Both the position numbers and the translations under genes were made by a program. DNA of 64,000 nucleotides, taken from Escherichia phage AV112. Shown piece after piece: positions 51,791 to 60,289 of the stretch (position 1 is its first letter; each line of letters starts with the position of its first letter). Under the pieces are notes generated by a model that was given only the letters and a program-made list of their open reading frames with translations, was not told the origin of the DNA and searched no databases. Location: the sequence record OR352942.1; one strand, given 5' to 3'.

Positions 51791-52312
51791 TCAGTAACCA
51801 TTATCCTGGCGTTCAAAGTTGTGTTGGTTTTTCAAGTAGTAAAGTTTAAAGATTTCTTCAGCGGAAAGACCCAGACCTTGGAACATGTTCAGGACAAAGT
51901 GGAGGATATCAATCATCTCGAATTTAATTTCAAGCTGGTCTTCAGGAGACAGTTCATCGATACGACGATTTCGATATTCAGCATGTTGAGCTTTCCAAGG
52001 CTTCCATACAGAGCTAGCGGCTTTTTCACCATTGCTCATACCACCAAGTGAAGTCAACAGTTCACGGAATTCATCATCAATATAATCTTTCTGATTACGC
52101 AGCCAATCAACAACATCGCCAGCAGTGGCTAATTCATCAGGATGTTTGTTATGTTCAGGCTTGTCATTTGCCAGACGAACCTGTAAAGATTTCTGCATAT
52201 CAAGCATTACCTGCAGAGGGTCTTTATCTTCGTGAATCAGAGCATTAAAATAAGCTTCTTCTGCTTTATCAACACCAGAAATAAGTTGTGAACATTCGTT
52301 AAAGTGTGCCAT
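51791..52312 (-). CDS. 56: gp56 dCTPase/dUTPase (MazG-like)
   Basis: start at ATG 52312 (MAHFNEC) with SD; about 173 aa. Confidence 0.8.
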   Translation of the reverse strand: MAHFNECSQLISGVDKAEEAYFNALIHEDKDPLQVMLDMQKSLQVRLANDKPEHNKHPDELATAGDVVDWLRNQKDYIDDEFRELLTSLGGMSNGEKAASSVWKPWKAQHAEYRNRRIDELSPEDQLEIKFEMIDILHFVLNMFQGLGLSAEEIFKLYYLKNQHNFERQDNGY

Positions 52313-52402
52313 TATTTTTCCTTTCAATTCAGTATAAGAGAGTTTAATTCTAACATTAATTTTATAAAGCGTAATAAATAATAAGGTAACTAAGGAGATA
52401 TT

Positions 52403-52600
52403 ATGTTTAAACTTCCATCGTTAATCAACGCTATTAAAGGCAATAAAAAGAAAACTGCTATCGCTGCAATAGTTGTAGGTGGCATTATTTCATGGAACTT
52501 CGGGATTGCGCCATTGTTAGTTGCCCATGGTGTTATGGTTCCTTCTGTTCCATTGGATACTGTAGTTGATTTGGCCTTTGCTATTATAGGGCTTGTCTAA
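52403..52600 (+). CDS. small hydrophobic protein (65 aa) on opposite strand
   Basis: AAGGAG SD 5 nt before ATG; two hydrophobic segments; stop overlaps gene 61 stop. Confidence 0.4.
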   Translation: MFKLPSLINAIKGNKKKTAIAAIVVGGIISWNFGIAPLLVAHGVMVPSVPLDTVVDLAFAIIGLV

Positions 52601-53619
52601 ATCTTAGAATAACGAGATAATCTCATTTTAGCATGCAACCCACTTGAAATATTCTGTTTCATATATTCTAAAATTTCTTGTGGTGTTGCATTTTCTTTCA
52701 TTACCATATCATTCACATCCTTTGATCTCCACGGAGCTCGGTCCCAGAACATGACACGTTCGCCTGCATCAACTAATCGCTTCATGCGAGCTATAGTATC
52801 CGGATGCCTAGGTTCATTATCCATTACCCATACCCGACGTTCTTTAAATGGTACAACATCTAAATCTATTGAGCCGCCTGTAATAGCGATTGCATTGGGT
52901 ATGAATAAACTATCAATAGGGCCTTCCATTACCCAGACGTCTCCTTCCTTAACACGTTCAACACCATAAATTTTTGTTGCAGACTCAAACGCTTTAATAG
53001 TGATATATTTCTGAGGAGCATCTTTACGAAGTGCACGTCCTTGGAATGACTCAGCCTTCCCGTCTTTATTAAAAATAGGAATCACTAAACGTGGTTCGGG
53101 AATCTCTTTTTTATATGTACCGGGTTGAATCTTGTTGACCAATTTAGGCCATTCTAATGTGAACCATAATCTGTTCCATGATTCTTTAGGAATGCATCGA
53201 GACTTAACATATTTCACAATAGGATGCTCTTCAGGCAGCTTGTCCAGACGAGAACAAGACGGCAAAGAATTTATAGTCTTTTTCTCTGGTTCTGGTTTAT
53301 GTTCAGGAACCTTTTCAATCTTTGGTTCCATTCTAGCTTTTTCTTTACGAACTTCCATTAGATATTCGCGATAAAGCTCTTCATCATACTCTTTTAAGTA
53401 TCCGGAAATTGTATTGTGGTATTGACAATTATAGCAATGTACATTACCAGGAGTACCGCCATAATACCATCCGCGAGCTTTCATTGCATCTGTCTGGGAG
53501 TCGCCACAAACTGGACATCGAAACGTTAATTTAAATGTGCTTGAATTATTGATTTGTCTAAAACGAGGTAGGTGAGAAAACGCACGATAAGCAAATTCAT
53601 TATCTATCCATTCAGCCAT
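52597..53619 (-). CDS. 61: gp61 DNA primase
   Basis: 340 aa; N-terminal zinc ribbon CPVCGDS...CYNC, TOPRIM core. Confidence 0.9.
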   Translation of the reverse strand: MAEWIDNEFAYRAFSHLPRFRQINNSSTFKLTFRCPVCGDSQTDAMKARGWYYGGTPGNVHCYNCQYHNTISGYLKEYDEELYREYLMEVRKEKARMEPKIEKVPEHKPEPEKKTINSLPSCSRLDKLPEEHPIVKYVKSRCIPKESWNRLWFTLEWPKLVNKIQPGTYKKEIPEPRLVIPIFNKDGKAESFQGRALRKDAPQKYITIKAFESATKIYGVERVKEGDVWVMEGPIDSLFIPNAIAITGGSIDLDVVPFKERRVWVMDNEPRHPDTIARMKRLVDAGERVMFWDRAPWRSKDVNDMVMKENATPQEILEYMKQNISSGLHAKMRLSRYSKI

Positions 53620-53658
53620 AGTATTCTCCAGAGGCCTTAAATTAATAAGGCCATCATA

Positions 53659-54153
53659 TCACAACTTATTAATATTTACTTTAATTCGCTTTCTTTTCTT
53701 GGAAGGAATTTGTTCTGGACCTTTATTTACGACTGCACCTGTAGTTGTTCCTGATGCAATAGCTTGAGGACTACCGCCTGAATCACCAGCAACCATATCC
53801 TCAAATAAAGGGAGTTCTTTAAATATTTCTTTCTGTTGTTCTTCCGTAATGTTATAGCGTGAAGCTACAGCACTCCAGGCAGACATCATTGAGGCCATTC
53901 CATTAAGACCTGGAACAGTGCTCATCATTCGCTTCATTGAACGAACTGACGCATGAAAAGGTGTATACGCAGCTTTCTCTTCGGGAGTAGAAGGACGTTT
54001 AAGAACACTTCCACGTTCATCGATGATTTTGGCTTCGTATGCTTTCCATTCGGTAAAAGGTTTTTGCATTAGTCGAATAAACTTATATGCATAAACAGAA
54101 TCTATTGCAGTGTTAATAATACCCATAGGTACCTCCTGAGTATATTTAATCAA
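53659..54153 (-). CDS. hypothetical protein (164 aa)
   Basis: ORF upstream of gene 61. Confidence 0.5.
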   Translation of the reverse strand: MIKYTQEVPMGIINTAIDSVYAYKFIRLMQKPFTEWKAYEAKIIDERGSVLKRPSTPEEKAAYTPFHASVRSMKRMMSTVPGLNGMASMMSAWSAVASRYNITEEQQKEIFKELPLFEDMVAGDSGGSPQAIASGTTTGAVVNKGPEQIPSKKRKRIKVNINKL

Positions 54154-54343
54154 TTACAAAGATTGCTTTGTCACCATTTATATCTGTGACTTCATACGTA
54201 GTGCCTTCATACTGCGGAATATTCCAAATTACACCATCATTAGCTTTTACGCTAATATGGTATTGGTGTTTTGAAACAACTTCATAATCTTCAAAACTTG
54301 TAAAAACACTAATTTTAGAACCAGTGCAAATTGCAGTAGTCAT
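54146..54343 (-). CDS. hypothetical protein (65 aa)
   Basis: small ORF. Confidence 0.4.
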   Translation of the reverse strand: MTTAICTGSKISVFTSFEDYEVVSKHQYHISVKANDGVIWNIPQYEGTTYEVTDINGDKAIFVID

Positions 54344-54344
54344 T

Positions 54345-55004
54345 TTAACCTCGATTCATAAATGCATTAAATATTTGGTCATCAACAGAAATTTCTAATT
54401 CGACTTCAATTGCTTCAGCCTTTTCTTCAGGTGGTAATTCGTATCCACACACTACAATTTTTTCATCGATATCAAAATATACAGAAGCAATATGATTAAT
54501 GTTATTTTCGGTTAAGTCTAAATCAACATCAACATCTTTTTGACCTACACTTAAAGGATAACTAATACGGGTTATTTTATTATCTTTAACAAAGAGTCCA
54601 CCGACATACTCTGTGCTATGTTTGAAGCTTACACGTTTCCGAAATGAAAGATATGATGCATCTTTACCGTGAGCTCGGCTCATAGGACATAATGAATAGC
54701 TAGAATAAGAGATGTCAAATCCTACACCTTCAATATGAGCCAACGTGTCATGATTAAACCAATTATAATCATATGCCAAATCCATTATATTGTAATACGT
54801 GAAAGGCACCGGATTAACATCATACGTTGTACCTTTAAAATCTGCCCAGGCAACGATTTCGTTATCTTTAACAATTACAAAAATTACACCAATATGGTAT
54901 CCATTATTATTTTCGTTCGGCGTTATATTATAACATTGTGCATTAGGAAATTTACCATATTTAAATGGTGCGTTTTTGTGCATGTAATAAATCATATTAT
55001 TCAC
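54345..55004 (-). CDS. hypothetical protein (219 aa)
   Basis: ORF. Confidence 0.5.
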   Translation of the reverse strand: MNNMIYYMHKNAPFKYGKFPNAQCYNITPNENNNGYHIGVIFVIVKDNEIVAWADFKGTTYDVNPVPFTYYNIMDLAYDYNWFNHDTLAHIEGVGFDISYSSYSLCPMSRAHGKDASYLSFRKRVSFKHSTEYVGGLFVKDNKITRISYPLSVGQKDVDVDLDLTENNINHIASVYFDIDEKIVVCGYELPPEEKAEAIEVELEISVDDQIFNAFMNRG

Positions 55005-55290
55005 CTGTGATTTCGGTTACGATATCTTTGTTATCGAAATTAGGGTCACAATACAAAACATAATTGTACTGCATGATACCACCAGACTTAAGTTGTTCAA
55101 CAACTTTATTAACCATATTAGGACGGTCTCGTTTAGTGATGTTCATAATATCAGAGAAGATTTGTTGTTCAACATCTTCTTGATTTGCAGTCATTGACCA
55201 CTCACAGAGGTCTTTATCATAACCTGCCGTAACTGGAGCTGGTGCGCATGATACTGCAAGTAAGATTGCTGCCAATGATAACTTTTTCAT
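54997..55290 (-). CDS. sp: Spackle periplasmic protein
   Basis: 97 aa with signal peptide; resembles T4 Sp (GYDKDLCEWSM, LKSGG.MQYNYVLYCD). Confidence 0.7.
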   Translation of the reverse strand: MKKLSLAAILLAVSCAPAPVTAGYDKDLCEWSMTANQEDVEQQIFSDIMNITKRDRPNMVNKVVEQLKSGGIMQYNYVLYCDPNFDNKDIVTEITGE

Positions 55291-55319
55291 TTTAACTCCT
55301 TAGTTGATTTGATAGGACT

Positions 55320-55349
55320 ACTATACCATAGTCCATCTATAATGTAAAC
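55320..55349 (-). promoter_or_regulatory. T4-type early promoter for sp
   Basis: minus-strand GTTTAC, 18 nt, TATAGT. Confidence 0.5.
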
Positions 55350-55353
55350 AACT

Positions 55354-55602
55354 TTATTCTTTTTCGCGAATAATAATTACTTGTTGAGGCTGCTGGGCAG
55401 ATTTCTTTTCGGCAACGATAGACCAAATTAAAGTTCCAATCCAACCAATCATCGTCCAGTTAAAGAGTAAAGATATAAAGAAGATTGCTGTTGTGCTTTT
55501 TGTGCCACGAATAAGTGCGATTACCCAAGGCAACATGTAAATGATGATTGAACCAATACCTGCGATTAAAACTGCTACTGAACTAGCTACGAATAATTCC
55601 AT
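55354..55602 (-). CDS. small inner-membrane protein (82 aa, two TM segments)
   Basis: two hydrophobic helices; possibly immunity-type membrane protein. Confidence 0.45.
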   Translation of the reverse strand: MELFVASSVAVLIAGIGSIIIYMLPWVIALIRGTKSTTAIFFISLLFNWTMIGWIGTLIWSIVAEKKSAQQPQQVIIIREKE

Positions 55603-55663
55603 GTTAATTTCCTCTTGATTTGTTATGTTTATAATATCTTGTTTTAACTTTGGTGTAAACCAA

Positions 55664-56032
55664 TTAATTAAATTTGTTTAAACGTTCAATACACTGGACG
55701 TAGTTATTTGCGATTTGTTTCTGGGTGGGCTCTTTACCAGTTGTTTCAACATAGCGAATGAATGCGATTTCAGTAGCCTGTAGACAATGTTCTTTAACGC
55801 GTTGTTCTTTTGACAATGCTACAGTATCAGAGTCACGATAACGTTGAGCATGGGCATCAGCTTGAATCATTCGATTACCTACAGTAACCGGGTCTTCCAC
55901 TTCAACTTTAGGTTGGTCATACTGTTTAACATTCGGATTGTAAATCAGTTGGCCAACGTTATTAGGGATAAAGCCATGGGCACCACATCCGGTTAATCCA
56001 AATACCATTGCTAAAGCGATTAATTTTTTCAT
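55664..56032 (-). CDS. predicted lipoprotein (122 aa)
   Basis: signal peptide with lipobox LTGC. Confidence 0.5.
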   Translation of the reverse strand: MKKLIALAMVFGLTGCGAHGFIPNNVGQLIYNPNVKQYDQPKVEVEDPVTVGNRMIQADAHAQRYRDSDTVALSKEQRVKEHCLQATEIAFIRYVETTGKEPTQKQIANNYVQCIERLNKFN

Positions 56033-56060
56033 TTCAATTTCCTCTGTAGTTGATAGAAAG

Positions 56061-56090
56061 ATAGTAACACAGTATGTGGTGCTTGTAAAC
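56061..56090 (-). promoter_or_regulatory. T4-type early promoter
   Basis: minus-strand GTTTAC, 18 nt, TACTAT. Confidence 0.45.
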
Positions 56091-56092
56091 AG

Positions 56093-56350
56093 TTATTTTA
56101 AACTTTTGCGAAATTTGCGTTTTTCTTGACGAATCTGTCGTTTAGTCGGACGTACAGCAAATTTAACGAAGTCCACTTTGCCGTGTGGAAACTTTTCAGA
56201 TGCTTCACAGTCCATCATTAGTTCCCATCCTTCCAGAATAAGAGCTTTCCATTGTGTAGTTGATGCAAATTCGTATGTTGATGGTTTAAACACAGTTGAA
56301 TACATATTATCCTCTGAAATCAGCTTCAAAAACTTTCTCGTCATTAACAA
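56093..56350 (-). CDS. hypothetical protein (85 aa)
   Basis: small ORF. Confidence 0.45.
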   Translation of the reverse strand: MLMTRKFLKLISEDNMYSTVFKPSTYEFASTTQWKALILEGWELMMDCEASEKFPHGKVDFVKFAVRPTKRQIRQEKRKFRKSLK

Positions 56351-56498
56351 ATGCTTTAACTAATGCGTTGTTCACTTCAGCAAGTTGTACCGTAACCCAC
56401 TCGATTTCTTCGCGATCACCTGATAACATAATATCTTTAGTGAACATCTCGCCGCTTTTAAACCAACCTATAAAAGTAACTTTAGTTAATTTGCTCAT
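56307..56498 (-). CDS. dmd: probable Dmd antitoxin (about 63 aa from ATG 56498)
   Basis: small protein next to gene 41 region; assignment from position and recalled similarity. Confidence 0.45.
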   Translation of the reverse strand: MSKLTKVTFIGWFKSGEMFTKDIMLSGDREEIEWVTVQLAEVNNALVKAFVNDEKVFEADFRG

Positions 56499-56812
56499 AT
56501 TTCCTCGCAAAATGCCCATTCAGCGTGATAAACTGTAGCACCTTTAGTATCATTCATTTGAACTACGTCTACCGGAGAAATTACTCGATAGAGACGTGGT
56601 TCACCTCCATAAGAGCGTGCTGCTCGTCCTGCATAAATCTTTGCTAAACCGATATCTTCAGTAAAGAATACACGATCCAAGTTTTTCTTACGTCCAGTTT
56701 CAGACAGAACTCCTGTTTCCTCAGGAGGACAAAGCATGTTTTCGATGTTAGCTGAACTACTTGAACCGTGATAAAAAATCTTAAATTCTGCTTTACAATC
56801 GATGGTTTTCAT
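56495..56812 (-). CDS. hypothetical protein (105 aa) with FYHGSSS motif
   Basis: ORF; His-Gly-Ser motif of uncertain meaning. Confidence 0.45.
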   Translation of the reverse strand: MKTIDCKAEFKIFYHGSSSSANIENMLCPPEETGVLSETGRKKNLDRVFFTEDIGLAKIYAGRAARSYGGEPRLYRVISPVDVVQMNDTKGATVYHAEWAFCEEI

Positions 56813-56838
56813 TTTGTTCTCCAGTAGTTGATAGGTCT

Positions 56839-56867
56839 ATAATAACACAACTACTGGAGAAGTAAAC
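56839..56867 (-). promoter_or_regulatory. T4-type early promoter
   Basis: minus-strand GTTTAC, 17 nt, TATTAT. Confidence 0.45.
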
Positions 56868-57242
56868 TTAAAAACGTAATTTAGATACGTCTGCGTTGAT
56901 TTCGTTTTGGTTTGCGTCGTATGCAATTAAACGAACCGCTTTAGATTGGTCATTCAATGCATAGAAATGATGGAACATTGCTCGAACGATATCACCATTT
57001 ACGAGTTCTACCTGGATAGGAGAACCTTTTTCGAGTTGGAAATGTTCATAAGCTTTGATGGTTCGCAGATAATCAAGTTTTTGATTTCCGGCTCCAACAA
57101 TTTGTACGATACGTTTGCCCATGTTTTCCATACGAGATACAATAGTTTTAGGAGCAAGAATAACGTAGGTTGCCAGCGGAGAAACTACTTCAACAGTTGT
57201 GTTTTCGGTGATTGCAGTAAAAATTGCTTGAGACATATTCAT
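56868..57242 (-). CDS. hypothetical protein (124 aa)
   Basis: ORF downstream of gene 41. Confidence 0.5.
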   Translation of the reverse strand: MNMSQAIFTAITENTTVEVVSPLATYVILAPKTIVSRMENMGKRIVQIVGAGNQKLDYLRTIKAYEHFQLEKGSPIQVELVNGDIVRAMFHHFYALNDQSKAVRLIAYDANQNEINADVSKLRF

Positions 57243-57271
57243 AATGTTTTCCTCTTGGTTTGTGTAAGTAC

Positions 57272-57301
57272 ATCATATCATGCCTAGAGGAAGATGTAAA
57301 C
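57272..57301 (-). promoter_or_regulatory. T4-type early promoter
   Basis: minus-strand GTTTAC, 18 nt, TATGAT. Confidence 0.4.
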
Positions 57302-57306
57302 CCCGA

Positions 57307-57326
57307 AAGGAGACCGAAGTCTCCTT
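57307..57326 (-). terminator. UUCG-tetraloop hairpin after gene 41 (no clear U-tract)
   Basis: AAGGAGAC-UUCG-GUCUCCUU on minus RNA, 5 nt past gene 41 stop. Confidence 0.45.
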
Positions 57327-57330
57327 TTTG

Positions 57331-58773
57331 TTAAAATTTTAACTCATTGGCTAAGCTATCTAGGTCAGCACGTGTTGCTTTGGCTTTACCTACGCGTTCC
57401 GTACGATTCGCCTCTGCCTGACGCATCTGAGCACCTGCGTTTTCATTTACTGTGTTAGGTGTGTTCATGCCTTCTTGCTCAATCTCAACCCATTTCTGGT
57501 TGCCTTTGCGTACACCCATCAGGAATTTATTCCACTTATTCTTATCGCCGTATCGTGATTTGATTTGTTTGATAAGTTGTTGTTCAGCTTGTGCAAGTTC
57601 TTCGGTTTCAATTACGGCCAACATGAAATCTGCTGTTGCTGGTAAACCTGCTGATTCTGCAATATCACTCATGTTCATATCCGAAGCATCCCATGCTGCA
57701 CGTCCTACTTGAGCTGCAGTCCATAGAACTGTTTCAGATTCTACTGCTAATGCACGAAGTTCTTCTGCGATAGCTTTAACTAATGTGTAGCTATTTTCAG
57801 TGTAAACTCTGATACGACAAGACCCACAAATACCTAAGTAATCAACCATGATTACAGATGGCACAAAGTTCTTCTTGAGTTTCAATTCATTAAGCAATGC
57901 ACGGAATGTATTAGCATTAGCTCCGCCAGTAGGATACTGTTTAACTACTAAACGTCCTAATGTGGATTTTGAACGCCATTTTTCCATCTTGGCTTTATAT
58001 TCAGCATAAGATACGTTACCATCATCAATATCATCAAGTGATACGTCAAGCATGTTTGCATCTATACGCTTAGCGCAAACTTCTTCGGCCATTTCCATGG
58101 AAATATAAAGAACATTATGACCTGTTTGAAGATAATCTGCAGCAAGTGAACAAAGGCCTAAAGATTTACCAACGTTAACACCAGCCATTAAAACGTTTAG
58201 TGTACCAGTTTCAGCACCACCTTTAGTGATTTTATTCAGAATGTTTAATTTGAACGGGACCTTACGTGCTTTGTTCAGATAAGAAAGCCAGCGTGCTTCA
58301 TAGTCTTCCATCCAGTCATGTCCAACATAACTATCAAACGAAATTGAAAGTGCTTGACGCATAATATCAGGAATAGCTCCTACGTCAGGCATTTTCTTGT
58401 TACGTTGTTCTGGAGGTAGTTCAGCATTAGACTGAATCTCAATGATTTTGGACGTAGCGTTATACATCGCTTTTTGCTGGACGTATTTCTCAGTTTCTTT
58501 AACCAACCATTCGTGGTCTTCAGGAGTATCAGCCAATTTTTCAATTAGGTCTGAAGTTCCTTTATATTCAGCTTCAGTTAAAGAACTGTTATCTAAAGCC
58601 ACCTTTAATGCATTTATAGACGGCATTGCATTATATTCGTTAACGTGGCTCTTTATAATTTTAAAGACATTTTTTGCCGGTCCACGCTCAAAATACTCAG
58701 AATCCATATAAGGCCAGACCTTAGAAAAATAAGCCTGGTCATATACTAGATGAGACAAAATAATTTCTACCAC
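57331..58773 (-). CDS. 41: gp41 replicative DNA helicase (DnaB family)
   Basis: 480 aa; Walker A GVNVGKS; near-colinear with T4 gp41. Confidence 0.92.
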   Translation of the reverse strand: MVEIILSHLVYDQAYFSKVWPYMDSEYFERGPAKNVFKIIKSHVNEYNAMPSINALKVALDNSSLTEAEYKGTSDLIEKLADTPEDHEWLVKETEKYVQQKAMYNATSKIIEIQSNAELPPEQRNKKMPDVGAIPDIMRQALSISFDSYVGHDWMEDYEARWLSYLNKARKVPFKLNILNKITKGGAETGTLNVLMAGVNVGKSLGLCSLAADYLQTGHNVLYISMEMAEEVCAKRIDANMLDVSLDDIDDGNVSYAEYKAKMEKWRSKSTLGRLVVKQYPTGGANANTFRALLNELKLKKNFVPSVIMVDYLGICGSCRIRVYTENSYTLVKAIAEELRALAVESETVLWTAAQVGRAAWDASDMNMSDIAESAGLPATADFMLAVIETEELAQAEQQLIKQIKSRYGDKNKWNKFLMGVRKGNQKWVEIEQEGMNTPNTVNENAGAQMRQAEANRTERVGKAKATRADLDSLANELKF

Positions 58774-58782
58774 GATAACTCC

Positions 58783-59151
58783 TTAAAAGAATTTAAATTT
58801 TTTCTTGGTCCGTTCATTAAAAGCTTGTTGTACTTGCATTGTAACACATTTTTCAACATGCGGTGCAAGTTCTGCTTTTCTGTCCTGGTCAAGAACTGCA
58901 AAGTCCATTACGATTTTACCATCAACCCAGTCTAGTTTTGTAATATAGACTATATGATGAGAACCATCTTCAAGTGTAATCAGAATCTCTTGAATGACAT
59001 TTTCCATTGCTGAACGGATAATTTTAAGAGATTCATTAAACACTCGTTCTTTGCGAATGTCTTCCCCTTCCGAAGAAGGGGATTCATCAACGATTTCTAG
59101 ATTTAAATCATCGAGATTATTCATCGAAATCTTCCATTTCGTCAAGGTCAT
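58783..59151 (-). CDS. 40: probable gp40 head-vertex assembly protein
   Basis: about 113-122 aa between 41 and uvsX; synteny only. Confidence 0.45.
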   Translation of the reverse strand: MTLTKWKISMNNLDDLNLEIVDESPSSEGEDIRKERVFNESLKIIRSAMENVIQEILITLEDGSHHIVYITKLDWVDGKIVMDFAVLDQDRKAELAPHVEKCVTMQVQQAFNERTKKKFKFF

Positions 59152-60289
59152 TTTCTATATCTGCTGCAGACGGAGCATCAGAAGTTTTAACCGGAACTTT
59201 AGTTGTTGCTTTGCAATTAATAAGGTCGTTAACAGCGTCATCAACTTCTTTAATAGAAGAGATAGCACCTAGTTTATATTTAGTTTCAATTGCATCTCGG
59301 AAAGGTTTGTGTTTAAACAACGGTCCCCAGAATTCTACACAATCAGTAGCTTTAGCACGCCATGATTTTTCTTCACGAATCATTTCGCCTGTTTCTTCGT
59401 CAAGGAATTCACGAGCATACCACCCGGCTTTAGGCTTAACTACAAAACCAATTTCAGTTGCCATTTCTAACAAGCCACTGAACGGGTCGATACCACCATC
59501 AAAATTAACTGTGATTGGGAAAGTAGATTTTTCTTTAACGGTGCGAGATTTTTCTGCTTTCAACGTGAAGTCATAACCGGTCAATTCTGTACCTTCTTTA
59601 ACCTGACGTTTAGAGATAAAGAATACAGTGTTAGCAGAGTAAAGAATACCTGTACCACCACCCATAATCTCTTTAGGATACAATCCGCCGATTTCCATTG
59701 CTGTATGGTTAATTGCAACACACGGAATATCTTTAATAGTCAGATAAGGAGTCACAATGCGGAACAGAGATTTAAGTGCCTTAGCACGAGACATATCACC
59801 TACAACTTTCTCGTTCAATGCATCTTCGGTTTCTTTCTTAGATGCAGTATTACCGATTGAATCGATAAAGATAATAACTTTATCACCGCGTTCAATCGCG
59901 TCAAGCTGATTAGTCATATCAACTTTAAGTTGTTCGACAGATTGAATCGGAGTATGAACTACACGGTCTAAATCAACACCCATTGAACGAAAATAAGATT
60001 CTGAAGCACCAAATTCTGAATCATAGAACAAACAAATTGCATCTTTATATTTCTTCATATATGCTGCAACCATGGTCAGTCCAAACAACGTTTTAAAGTG
60101 TTTAGAAGGAGCAGCAAAAATAGTTAAGCCTGATTGCAACCCAGCATTCAGTGCACCACCTAATGCAATATTCAACATCGGAATACGAGTAGGGACTTCA
60201 TCACGATTATTAAACAGCTTAGACTTAGTCAAGTCTGCAGTCATTTTAGAAGTAGAAGCTTTAATCAGACGAGATTTTAAATCAGACAT
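59117..60289 (-). CDS. uvsX: UvsX recombinase (RecA-like)
   Basis: 390 aa; near-colinear with T4 UvsX; acidic C-terminus. Confidence 0.92.
   Translation of the reverse strand: MSDLKSRLIKASTSKMTADLTKSKLFNNRDEVPTRIPMLNIALGGALNAGLQSGLTIFAAPSKHFKTLFGLTMVAAYMKKYKDAICLFYDSEFGASESYFRSMGVDLDRVVHTPIQSVEQLKVDMTNQLDAIERGDKVIIFIDSIGNTASKKETEDALNEKVVGDMSRAKALKSLFRIVTPYLTIKDIPCVAINHTAMEIGGLYPKEIMGGGTGILYSANTVFFISKRQVKEGTELTGYDFTLKAEKSRTVKEKSTFPITVNFDGGIDPFSGLLEMATEIGFVVKPKAGWYAREFLDEETGEMIREEKSWRAKATDCVEFWGPLFKHKPFRDAIETKYKLGAISSIKEVDDAVNDLINCKATTKVPVKTSDAPSAADIENDLDEMEDFDE

Follow-up and report, generated by a model that had tools for sequence, protein, structure and literature searches.

The interval between genes 61 and 41 of Escherichia phage AV112: a Mosigvirus accessory block with exclusion and anti-toxin genes and a small ADP-ribosyltransferase-fold protein

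Ten consecutive minus-strand open reading frames (ORFs; positions 53659-57242), non-overlapping apart from four nucleotides shared by two of them, separate the DNA primase gene 61 of Escherichia phage AV112 from its replicative helicase gene 41. The locus raises the question of whether this is a new expansion of a region known from phage T4, and what its products might do. The DNA analysed, called the window below, is a 64,000-nucleotide stretch of sequence record OR352942.1. A first-pass annotation made from the letters of the sequence had counted ten ORFs here, more than in T4, and had described the interval as a plasticity zone for envelope and anti-toxin functions. The count is borne out by the ORF list and by the deposited annotations of two relatives, and the description agrees with what we found in related phages. 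The region is an already known, ordinary accessory block of RB69-like phages (Mosigvirus), and one of its genes, ORF040c, encodes a protein with the ADP-ribosyltransferase (ART) fold. Our reading of the whole is that this is probably the Mosigvirus version of the variable 61-41 region, with five early units, exclusion and anti-toxin genes, and an autonomous ART in ORF040c.

The identity of the region follows from direct comparison. A megablast search of positions 53600-57330 against 50,697 phage records returned a full-length match of 100% identity to AV113 (OR352943), and full-length matches of 97.8-98.6% identity to RB69, HX01, ST0 and about 150 other Mosigvirus genomes. The same ten genes are called in the deposited annotations of AV113 and HX01, and that of RB69 has eleven calls, with 61.1 divided into two ORFs. 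Since the stretch is almost wholly identical to genomes of the AV113/RB69 type, it is a piece of an RB69-type phage that has already been deposited and annotated. The flanking genes are:

52597-53619, minus strand: gene 61, DNA primase, a 340-residue ORF, downstream boundary
57331-58773, minus strand: gene 41, replicative helicase, a 480-residue ORF, upstream boundary

The primase is 99-100% identical to that of RB69 and AV113 and 74% identical to that of T4, and the helicase 99% identical to that of RB69 and 86% to that of T4.

The element of wider interest in the block is the following gene:

56495-56812, minus strand: ORF040c, 105 residues, ART-fold protein of the Arr/Tpt1 type; phrog_2110, no Pfam family

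An FYHGSSS motif had been noticed in this protein, and a check for an ART or Tpt1-like fold had been proposed. The motif F-Y-H-G-S-S-S occupies residues 13-19. The predicted structure model is confident and has the ART fold, with an H-G-[ST] motif closing strand 1, and nearly all of the 60 matches listed for ORF040c are ADP-ribosyltransferases. In a BFVD search the first match past the close homologues of ORF040c itself is a 94-residue phage protein named Arr (E = 1.2e-8), and several GenBank records already name ORF040c homologues 'ADP-ribosyl transferase'.

For sequence comparison we used two profiles, A1, built from close homologues, and A2, which is broader and more diverse; the match to Arr described here was obtained from 51 stand-alone relatives. 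The profile of these 51 relatives matches the Arr chains 2hw2 and 9iaf (E = 5e-4), with H15-G16-S17 of ORF040c aligned to H19-G20-T21 of Arr, E38..R41 to E40..R43 (an E-x-G-R motif common to both), and V48-F49-F50-T51 to I48-Y49-I50-T51. Residues H15, G16 and Y60 are invariant in 51/51 of these diverse relatives. Y60 lies 11 residues after F49, which on our reading may correspond to the spacing of the nicotinamide-clamping Y-x10-Y motif typical of diphtheria-toxin-type ARTs. The Pfam family Arr-ms (PF12120) matches 19 of the 51 stand-alone relatives, and it matches 31 of 55 multidomain relatives at the site where the domain lies; some of these matches exceed the 25-bit cutoff, and the best has E = 1.8e-9. 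The ART fold is an already known one. No sequence-level match to Tpt1/KptA was obtained with the single sequence or with the profiles. We rejected a role as a Tpt1-type RNA 2'-phosphotransferase, since the RNA lobe is absent and the protein is too short to contain it. We have filed ORF040c as an ART-fold protein of the Arr/Tpt1 branch that lies outside both enzyme families.

ORF040c is widespread and highly conserved. It has 149 close relatives in a large protein database, and a profile search of 1.84 billion cluster representatives recovered 221 relatives, many of them within large proteins. In the 55 multidomain relatives the partner domains are ART-PolyVal, NUDIX, GNAT, Toprim, portal, tape measure, CHAP and 2H phosphoesterase; occurrence of the domain within such polyvalent or virion-associated proteins is a signature of injected or early effectors. 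Homologues occur in 609 phage records, including phages of Klebsiella (116), Acinetobacter (68), Aeromonas (62) and Vibrio (14), and also of Escherichia, Enterobacter and Cronobacter, mostly at 60-90% identity. Conservation of ORF040c exceeds that of gp41/gp61 in the same loci (90% versus 68%/62%, 78% versus 65%/53%, and 73% versus 56%/44%). No ART of this type was found in the T4 interval or in the first 50 kb of T4.

Two observations concern the surroundings of relatives. One distant stand-alone relative shares its phage contig with a giant, fused RNA polymerase gene, and the others lie on contigs under 2 kb; macro, NADAR or ARH partners were seen near none of them. In Acinetobacter phage Acj61 (locus L006, 1-2297) the third gene upstream of the ART homologue encodes a nicotinamide phosphoribosyltransferase. 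This enzyme recycles nicotinamide, the by-product of ADP-ribosyl transfer, and the adjacency may be coincidence.

Several points weigh against an active and autonomous ART. The single sequence of ORF040c has no match in Pfam (E <= 1), in NCBIfam or among PDB sequences, and the close-homologue profile A1 has no PDB match either, so that the link to Arr requires the family profile A2. Phe49 stands where Arr has Tyr49. The position near Arr Asp84 (N87/D88) is not invariant, being occupied by D, E, N, S or A, and Glu103 is conserved only in the T4-like subfamily; catalysis is therefore not assured. The protein ends about 40 residues short of the Arr C-terminus, and the whole RNA-binding lobe of Tpt1 is absent, so that neither of the known substrates can be assumed. 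The 4-nucleotide overlap of ORF040c with dmd, the gene that follows it, is what would be expected of a functional pair. The early promoters of the interval are consensus matches only, and we infer, rather than observe, the catalytic activity, the target and the biological role of ORF040c.

With these points in mind, we consider an autonomous, NAD+-dependent early effector the most likely identity of ORF040c. The protein would be a minimal, 105-residue, NAD+-using ADP-ribosyltransferase of the Arr/Tpt1 branch, expressed from its own early promoter, and would modify a conserved host macromolecule, either an RNA end or a protein, to the benefit of takeover or counter-defence. Its adjacency to dmd would then reflect a shared early operon and not toxin-antitoxin dependence; autonomy is favoured because the ART and dmd mostly occur apart in the survey described below. 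A bolder form of this proposal, which we offer tentatively and at somewhat less than an even chance, is that ORF040c is an active ART among the smallest, representing a fourth T-even class beside Alt, ModA and ModB, and that it acts independently of Dmd, blunting RNA-targeting or NAD-linked defence through the modification of a host RNA end or protein that is universally conserved. If true, this would explain the 62-90% identity seen across phages of Escherichia, Klebsiella, Acinetobacter, Aeromonas and Vibrio, with loss from T4.

An alternative, which we regard as unlikely, is that ORF040c binds NAD+ or a NAD-derived molecule without any transfer of ADP-ribose, acting as a sponge for an immune signal (e.g. 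cyclic ADP-ribose isomers), shielding NAD+, or inhibiting a host ART or NADase as a decoy. The conservation of the NAD-contacting positions (H15-G16-S/T, F49...Y60) beside a variable acidic catalytic position would suit such a protein, as would its very small size, and the neighbouring Dmd and AdfA act by binding and blocking (PMC11257639). However, the ORF040c-type domain is embedded beside other enzymes in polyvalent proteins, which suggests an enzymatic effector. In addition, Arr and Tpt1 are active although they have no classical catalytic Glu, and we know of no sponge with an ART fold of this kind.

Rather improbable, in our estimation, is that ORF040c and Dmd constitute a phage type II toxin-antitoxin pair, in which ORF040c would be the toxin, possibly acting on RNA, and Dmd would neutralise both the ART and RnlA (Iyer et al. 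2022, PMC9503650). Such a pair could serve, for example, to abort superinfection or to enforce retention of dmd. The features concerned are:

56307-56498, minus strand: dmd, antitoxin against the host RnlA/LsoA toxins, 63 residues; Pfam PF17587, phrog_2102
56839-56867, minus strand: early-type promoter of the ORF040c-dmd-61.4 unit, GTTTACTTCTCCAGTAGTTGTGTTATTAT, directly 3' of the ORF041c stop codon

The ATG of dmd overlaps the stop codon of ORF040c by 4 nucleotides (ATGA), a GAGG Shine-Dalgarno sequence for dmd lies within the last ORF040c codons, and a single promoter stands upstream of both genes. The adjacency recurs, with a gap of 0 to -4 nucleotides, in three sequence groups, namely Mosigvirus and two others with ARTs 86-90% identical, and many ARTs of this fold are toxins. 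A type II system of a 'p0068-family' ART and Dmd has been predicted in phages of Escherichia, Shigella and Salmonella, with a Mod-like ART in the same position beside Dmd in some Klebsiella phages (PMC9503650, section 3.7.1). The description fits ORF040c and dmd, which appear to be the pair meant there.

The main objection to the pair is distribution. We surveyed the neighbours of the ART in 55 IMG/VR loci and reference phages, with the downstream ORF called in 59 loci, and dmd comes directly after the ART in only about 15 of the 59, belonging to Mosigvirus and the two other groups; the pairing is thus confined to a minority of ART-bearing phages in this survey. Elsewhere the next gene encodes a membrane protein of 55-60 residues, a Cys-rich acidic protein of 41-46 residues, a lipoprotein, gp30.6 or others, from at least six unrelated families. 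The 609 records with the ART include phages of Klebsiella, Acinetobacter, Aeromonas and Vibrio, whereas Dmd, with 798 records (565 of them T4-type), is found almost exclusively in phages of Escherichia, Shigella, Yersinia and Salmonella, with none listed for phages of Klebsiella, Acinetobacter, Aeromonas or Vibrio. T4-type phages have Dmd without the ART in the 61-41 interval. Their mostly separate occurrence speaks against an obligate pair, but is compatible with an interaction in those loci where they are neighbours. Furthermore, addiction would be of no obvious benefit to a lytic phage, and a transposon screen found that RnlAB alone fully accounts for the essentiality of dmd in T4 (10.1101/2025.11.20.689424).

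Two further observations were made on the genes that follow the ART. We considered whether these genes might be hidden homologues of Dmd, and rejected this idea, as none has a Pfam Dmd match or a tblastn match. The acidic protein of 41-46 residues has two Cys-x2-Cys pairs, resembling a zinc ribbon, ends in EEE, and has no Pfam match; it follows the ART or Dmd in 8 loci, being placed after the ART in loci L007 (2316-2456), L018, L023 and L024, and after Dmd in L011-L016.

The last alternative, that ORF040c is an Arr-like small-molecule ADP-ribosyltransferase inactivating a diffusible antibiotic-like or anti-phage compound as Arr does rifampin, is quite improbable: Arr is the only characterised enzyme linked to ORF040c at the sequence level, and the same idea has been raised for bona fide Arr homologues in actinophages (PMC9503650), but the part of Arr beyond the core is absent from ORF040c (105 versus 143 residues), and the spread of the family, at 62-90% identity, among phages infecting many Gram-negative hosts is more in keeping with a universal cellular target than with a niche-specific compound.

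The preferred reading, an autonomous early effector, also supposes early expression, which brings us to the transcription of the interval. We searched the window for a T4-early-type promoter pattern, GTTTAC-N15-19-TAnnnT, and found 26 matches, 24 of them on the minus strand, as compared with 5.1 +/- 2.0 in shuffled sequences. Such an excess, far above the shuffle level, marks the pattern as meaningful. It occurs five times in the interval, ahead of ORF041c, ORF040c, imm.1, imm and sp, each time in an intergenic gap of 55-88 nucleotides. The first-pass annotation had given every one of the ten ORFs its own early promoter. This was an error, since the other five genes have no promoter and are tightly packed into operons, with the 4-nucleotide overlap (ORF040c/dmd) or gaps of 1, 1, 1 and 19 nucleotides to the upstream neighbour. 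The promoters not already listed are:

57272-57301, minus strand: early-type promoter of ORF041c, GTTTACATCTTCCTCTAGGCATGATATGAT
56061-56090, minus strand: early-type promoter of imm.1, GTTTACAAGCACCACATACTGTGTTACTAT
55631-55660, minus strand: early-type promoter of imm, GTTTACACCAAAGTTAAAACAAGATATTAT
55320-55349, minus strand: early-type promoter of the sp-adfA-ORF033c-61.1 unit, GTTTACATTATAGATGGACTATGGTATAGT, scoring 10/12 in a sigma-70 scan and having an extended-10 TG

This arrangement fits five predicted early units on the minus strand: ORF041c; ORF040c-dmd-61.4; imm.1; imm; and sp-adfA-ORF033c-61.1. The products of the island would act in the first minutes of infection. Counted over the whole window, these early-type sites are unevenly spread: the interval has 5 in 3.7 kb, about three times the density of the remainder, which has 21 in about 60 kb. 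Next to the uppermost promoter lies a hairpin:

57306-57327, minus strand: stem-loop of 9 bp with a UUCG loop, immediately 3' of the stop codon of gene 41 and shortly ahead of the next early promoter

RNA folding assigns it -16.2 kcal/mol (z = -3.05 versus shuffles). A terminator scan made no call at this hairpin, the T-run of which is short; it is possibly a weak terminator or an RNA-stabilising hairpin.

Besides dmd, a second gene of the island is directed against a toxin:

54345-54995, minus strand: 61.2, AdfA (anti-DarT factor A), 216 residues; Pfam PF23813

The assignment of dmd, which had been proposed as a probable Dmd antitoxin, is upheld by a Pfam match of 75.6 bits against a cutoff of 27 (E = 4e-21), by 57% identity to T4 Dmd, and by its T4-like position beside 61.4. 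Dmd binds and inhibits the host RNases RnlA/LsoA. AdfA, matched over its full length by PF23813 (E = 4.8e-120, 399 bits) and 66% identical to T4 gp61.2, is a characterised protein that had gone unrecognised (PMC11257639). Its target, DarT1, is a DNA ADP-ribosyltransferase, and an Arg164His change in the AdfA of RB69, published as an escape mutation, permits binding and neutralisation of this toxin; natural His-164 alleles have been found in relatives of RB69 (PMC11257639). At residue 164 in RB69 numbering (codon 168 of the 216-residue ORF), AV112 has His, as does T4, whereas RB69 has Arg. Judging from this residue, AV112 should resist DarTG1 via AdfA, unlike RB69. The two products would thus neutralise host toxin-antitoxin defences, Dmd acting against RnlA/LsoA and AdfA, with His-164, against DarT1.

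Three genes that lie side by side in this lineage belong to superinfection exclusion:

54997-55290, minus strand: sp, Spackle, periplasmic superinfection-exclusion protein, 97 residues; Pfam PF25676, phrog_1586
55354-55602, minus strand: imm, superinfection immunity, inner-membrane protein, 82 residues; Pfam PF14373, phrog_1039
55664-56032, minus strand: imm.1, predicted lipoprotein (DUF5481), 122 residues; Pfam PF17578

Spackle, which had been named correctly, matches PF25676 over residues 1-96 (E = 1.1e-42, 145 bits), is 66% identical to T4 Sp, and has an N-terminal hydrophobic signal segment (residues 4-24). The 82-residue protein does have two hydrophobic segments, as noted before when it was described as a two-span membrane protein; it is not novel, being Imm, with 57 bits to PF14373 against a cutoff of 27.9 (E = 1.8e-15) and 65% identity to T4 Imm. 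The same applies to the lipoprotein, whose signal peptide with the lipobox L-T-G-C at residues 13-16 is present and which is no novelty, being Imm.1 (37.3 bits to PF17578 against a cutoff of 27; 32% identity to T4 Imm.1). Apart from the wrong detail about promoters and these three missed identities (Imm, Imm.1 and AdfA), the earlier description is largely correct. Sp inhibits the incoming tail lysozyme and Imm blocks DNA entry. Together they would provide envelope-level exclusion of later-arriving phages, Spackle acting against the tail lysozyme and Imm against DNA entry, with Imm.1 adjoining.

It should be added that some RefSeq product names for these genes are plainly wrong, in the HX01 record (L002, 2565-3206) and for imm.1 in the T4 record (L004). 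We rejected 'iduronate sulfatase', attached to Imm.1, and 'DNA polymerase', attached to the 70-residue gp61.4 of HX01, as annotation artefacts, which look like name propagation.

Four genes are without an assigned function:

53659-54126, minus strand: 61.1, 155 residues; phrog_2086 only
54146-54343, minus strand: ORF033c, 65 residues; phrog_3249 only (E = 1e-32), starting 1 nucleotide after the adfA stop codon
56093-56305, minus strand: 61.4, DUF7279, 70 residues; Pfam PF23945 (E = 3.5e-20), starting 1 nucleotide after the dmd stop codon
56868-57242, minus strand: ORF041c, 124 residues; phrog_10668 only

The N-terminal two-thirds of 61.1 is helical and is followed by a disordered basic tail; modelling gave nothing specific. 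The 155-residue form is found with 52-64% identity even in Acinetobacter and Yersinia phages (loci L006, L011-L025 and L039-L049), and in the loci compared it always stands just upstream of the primase gene, while T4 retains no more than the last 54 residues, which are disordered and basic. The pattern points to a conserved role, one that work on T4 would not have revealed. In RB69 (NC_004928, locus L001, 1560-2026) 61.1 consists of ORFs of 92 and 63 residues in different frames, as compared with one 155-residue ORF in the window, HX01 and AV113, which indicates a frameshift or sequencing error in RB69. ORF033c has no Pfam match and is also present in a second group of T-even-type phages (66-71% identity); 61.4 is 57% identical to T4 gp61.4. 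ORF041c is a Mosigvirus-restricted ORFan, represented by only two clusters in 5.8 billion proteins and by 134 phage records, 132 of which are at least 95% identical.

Variability of the interval between phages agrees with its description as a plasticity zone. Among the related loci compared, genes 41 and 61 stand between about 1.4 kb and about 7.3 kb apart, with differing gene sets, and in AV112 the interval holds exclusion and anti-toxin genes. In the Mosigvirus-type contigs L009 (534-1159) and L010 (4315-4941), 61.4 is missing and imm.1 follows dmd after about 75 nucleotides, so the island is variable even inside the genus.

Gene coordinates given here use homology-supported ATG starts: the mechanical ORFs 53659-54153, 54345-55004, 56093-56350 and 56307-56519 begin upstream of the supported ATGs at 54126, 54995, 56305 and 56498, respectively. 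Plus-strand ORFs inside the interval (e.g. 54735-55010 and 56946-57287) were rejected as chance ORFs, being antisense to conserved genes and without support. A search against NCBIfam gave no assignments beyond those from Pfam and PHROGs, and Rfam detected no RNA family within 52000-59500 at E <= 0.1. Just outside the interval, between genes 56 and 61, there is a hydrophobic ORF of 65 residues on the plus strand (52403-52600), named ORF029w in RB69; very few other genes of this early region lie on that strand.

As a genome feature, the interval changes nothing, as the region has been deposited and annotated and most of its genes have published functions. Its value lies in showing, on a small scale, how T-even-type phages collect early counter-measures at a single variable site: three genes for exclusion at the envelope, two against toxins and one for an ART-fold protein share 3.7 kb under five predicted early promoters. 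ORF040c is the practical lead, being conserved beyond the helicase and the primase and small enough for direct biochemistry. As it was not found in the interval or the first 50 kb of the T4 model, it is not known to have been studied genetically. Finding its target would bring to light a new NAD+-dependent step in phage takeover or counter-defence, and would also settle the published toxin-antitoxin prediction.

Among known systems, Arr (PF12120; PDB 2hw2 and 9iaf) is comparable to ORF040c through a profile alignment spanning residues 13-82 of that 143-residue enzyme; of the H-Y-D triad of Arr, the Tyr is replaced by Phe and the Asp84 has no invariant equivalent. With Tpt1/KptA (PDB 9ld3 and 7kw9) 75 of 179 residues align, and what ORF040c lacks is the N-terminal RNA-binding lobe, where most of the catalytic Arg-His-Arg-Arg tetrad resides. 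ORF040c has no detected sequence similarity to AcrIF11 (PDB 6kyf), a phage anti-CRISPR ADP-ribosyltransferase that targets a Cascade subunit, and a relation of hosts or target is not demonstrated.

The comparison with T4 shows the same flanking genes, orientation and relative order of the shared genes, but five genes (61.1, 61.2, sp, 61.4 and dmd) in about 1.65 kb instead of ten in about 3.7 kb. One-to-one orthology with T4 and a lack of novel folds had been named beforehand as a result that would speak against an unusual interval. Orthology with T4 is not one-to-one: what we find is five positional T4 orthologues (57-75% identical in local tblastn), two genes sited elsewhere in T4, and three (ORF033c, ORF040c and ORF041c) without a counterpart in the T4 interval, and no new fold, that of ORF040c being known. 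The two displaced genes are imm and imm.1, which in T4 lie between genes 42 and 43 and here lie inside the 61-41 interval; in RB69 no imm was found in the stretch after uvsX. Furthermore, the 54-residue T4 61.1 is equivalent to no more than the C-terminal third of the 155-residue protein.

RB69 (NC_004928) has the same gene order (61.1, ORF033c, 61.2, sp, imm, imm.1, 61.4, dmd, ORF040c, ORF041c) and 98% identical DNA, and differs from the window in its split 61.1 and in the Arg-164 of AdfA, where AV112 has an intact 61.1 and His-164. AV113 (OR352943) is the nearest of all, with the same gene order and gene calls and 100% identical DNA.

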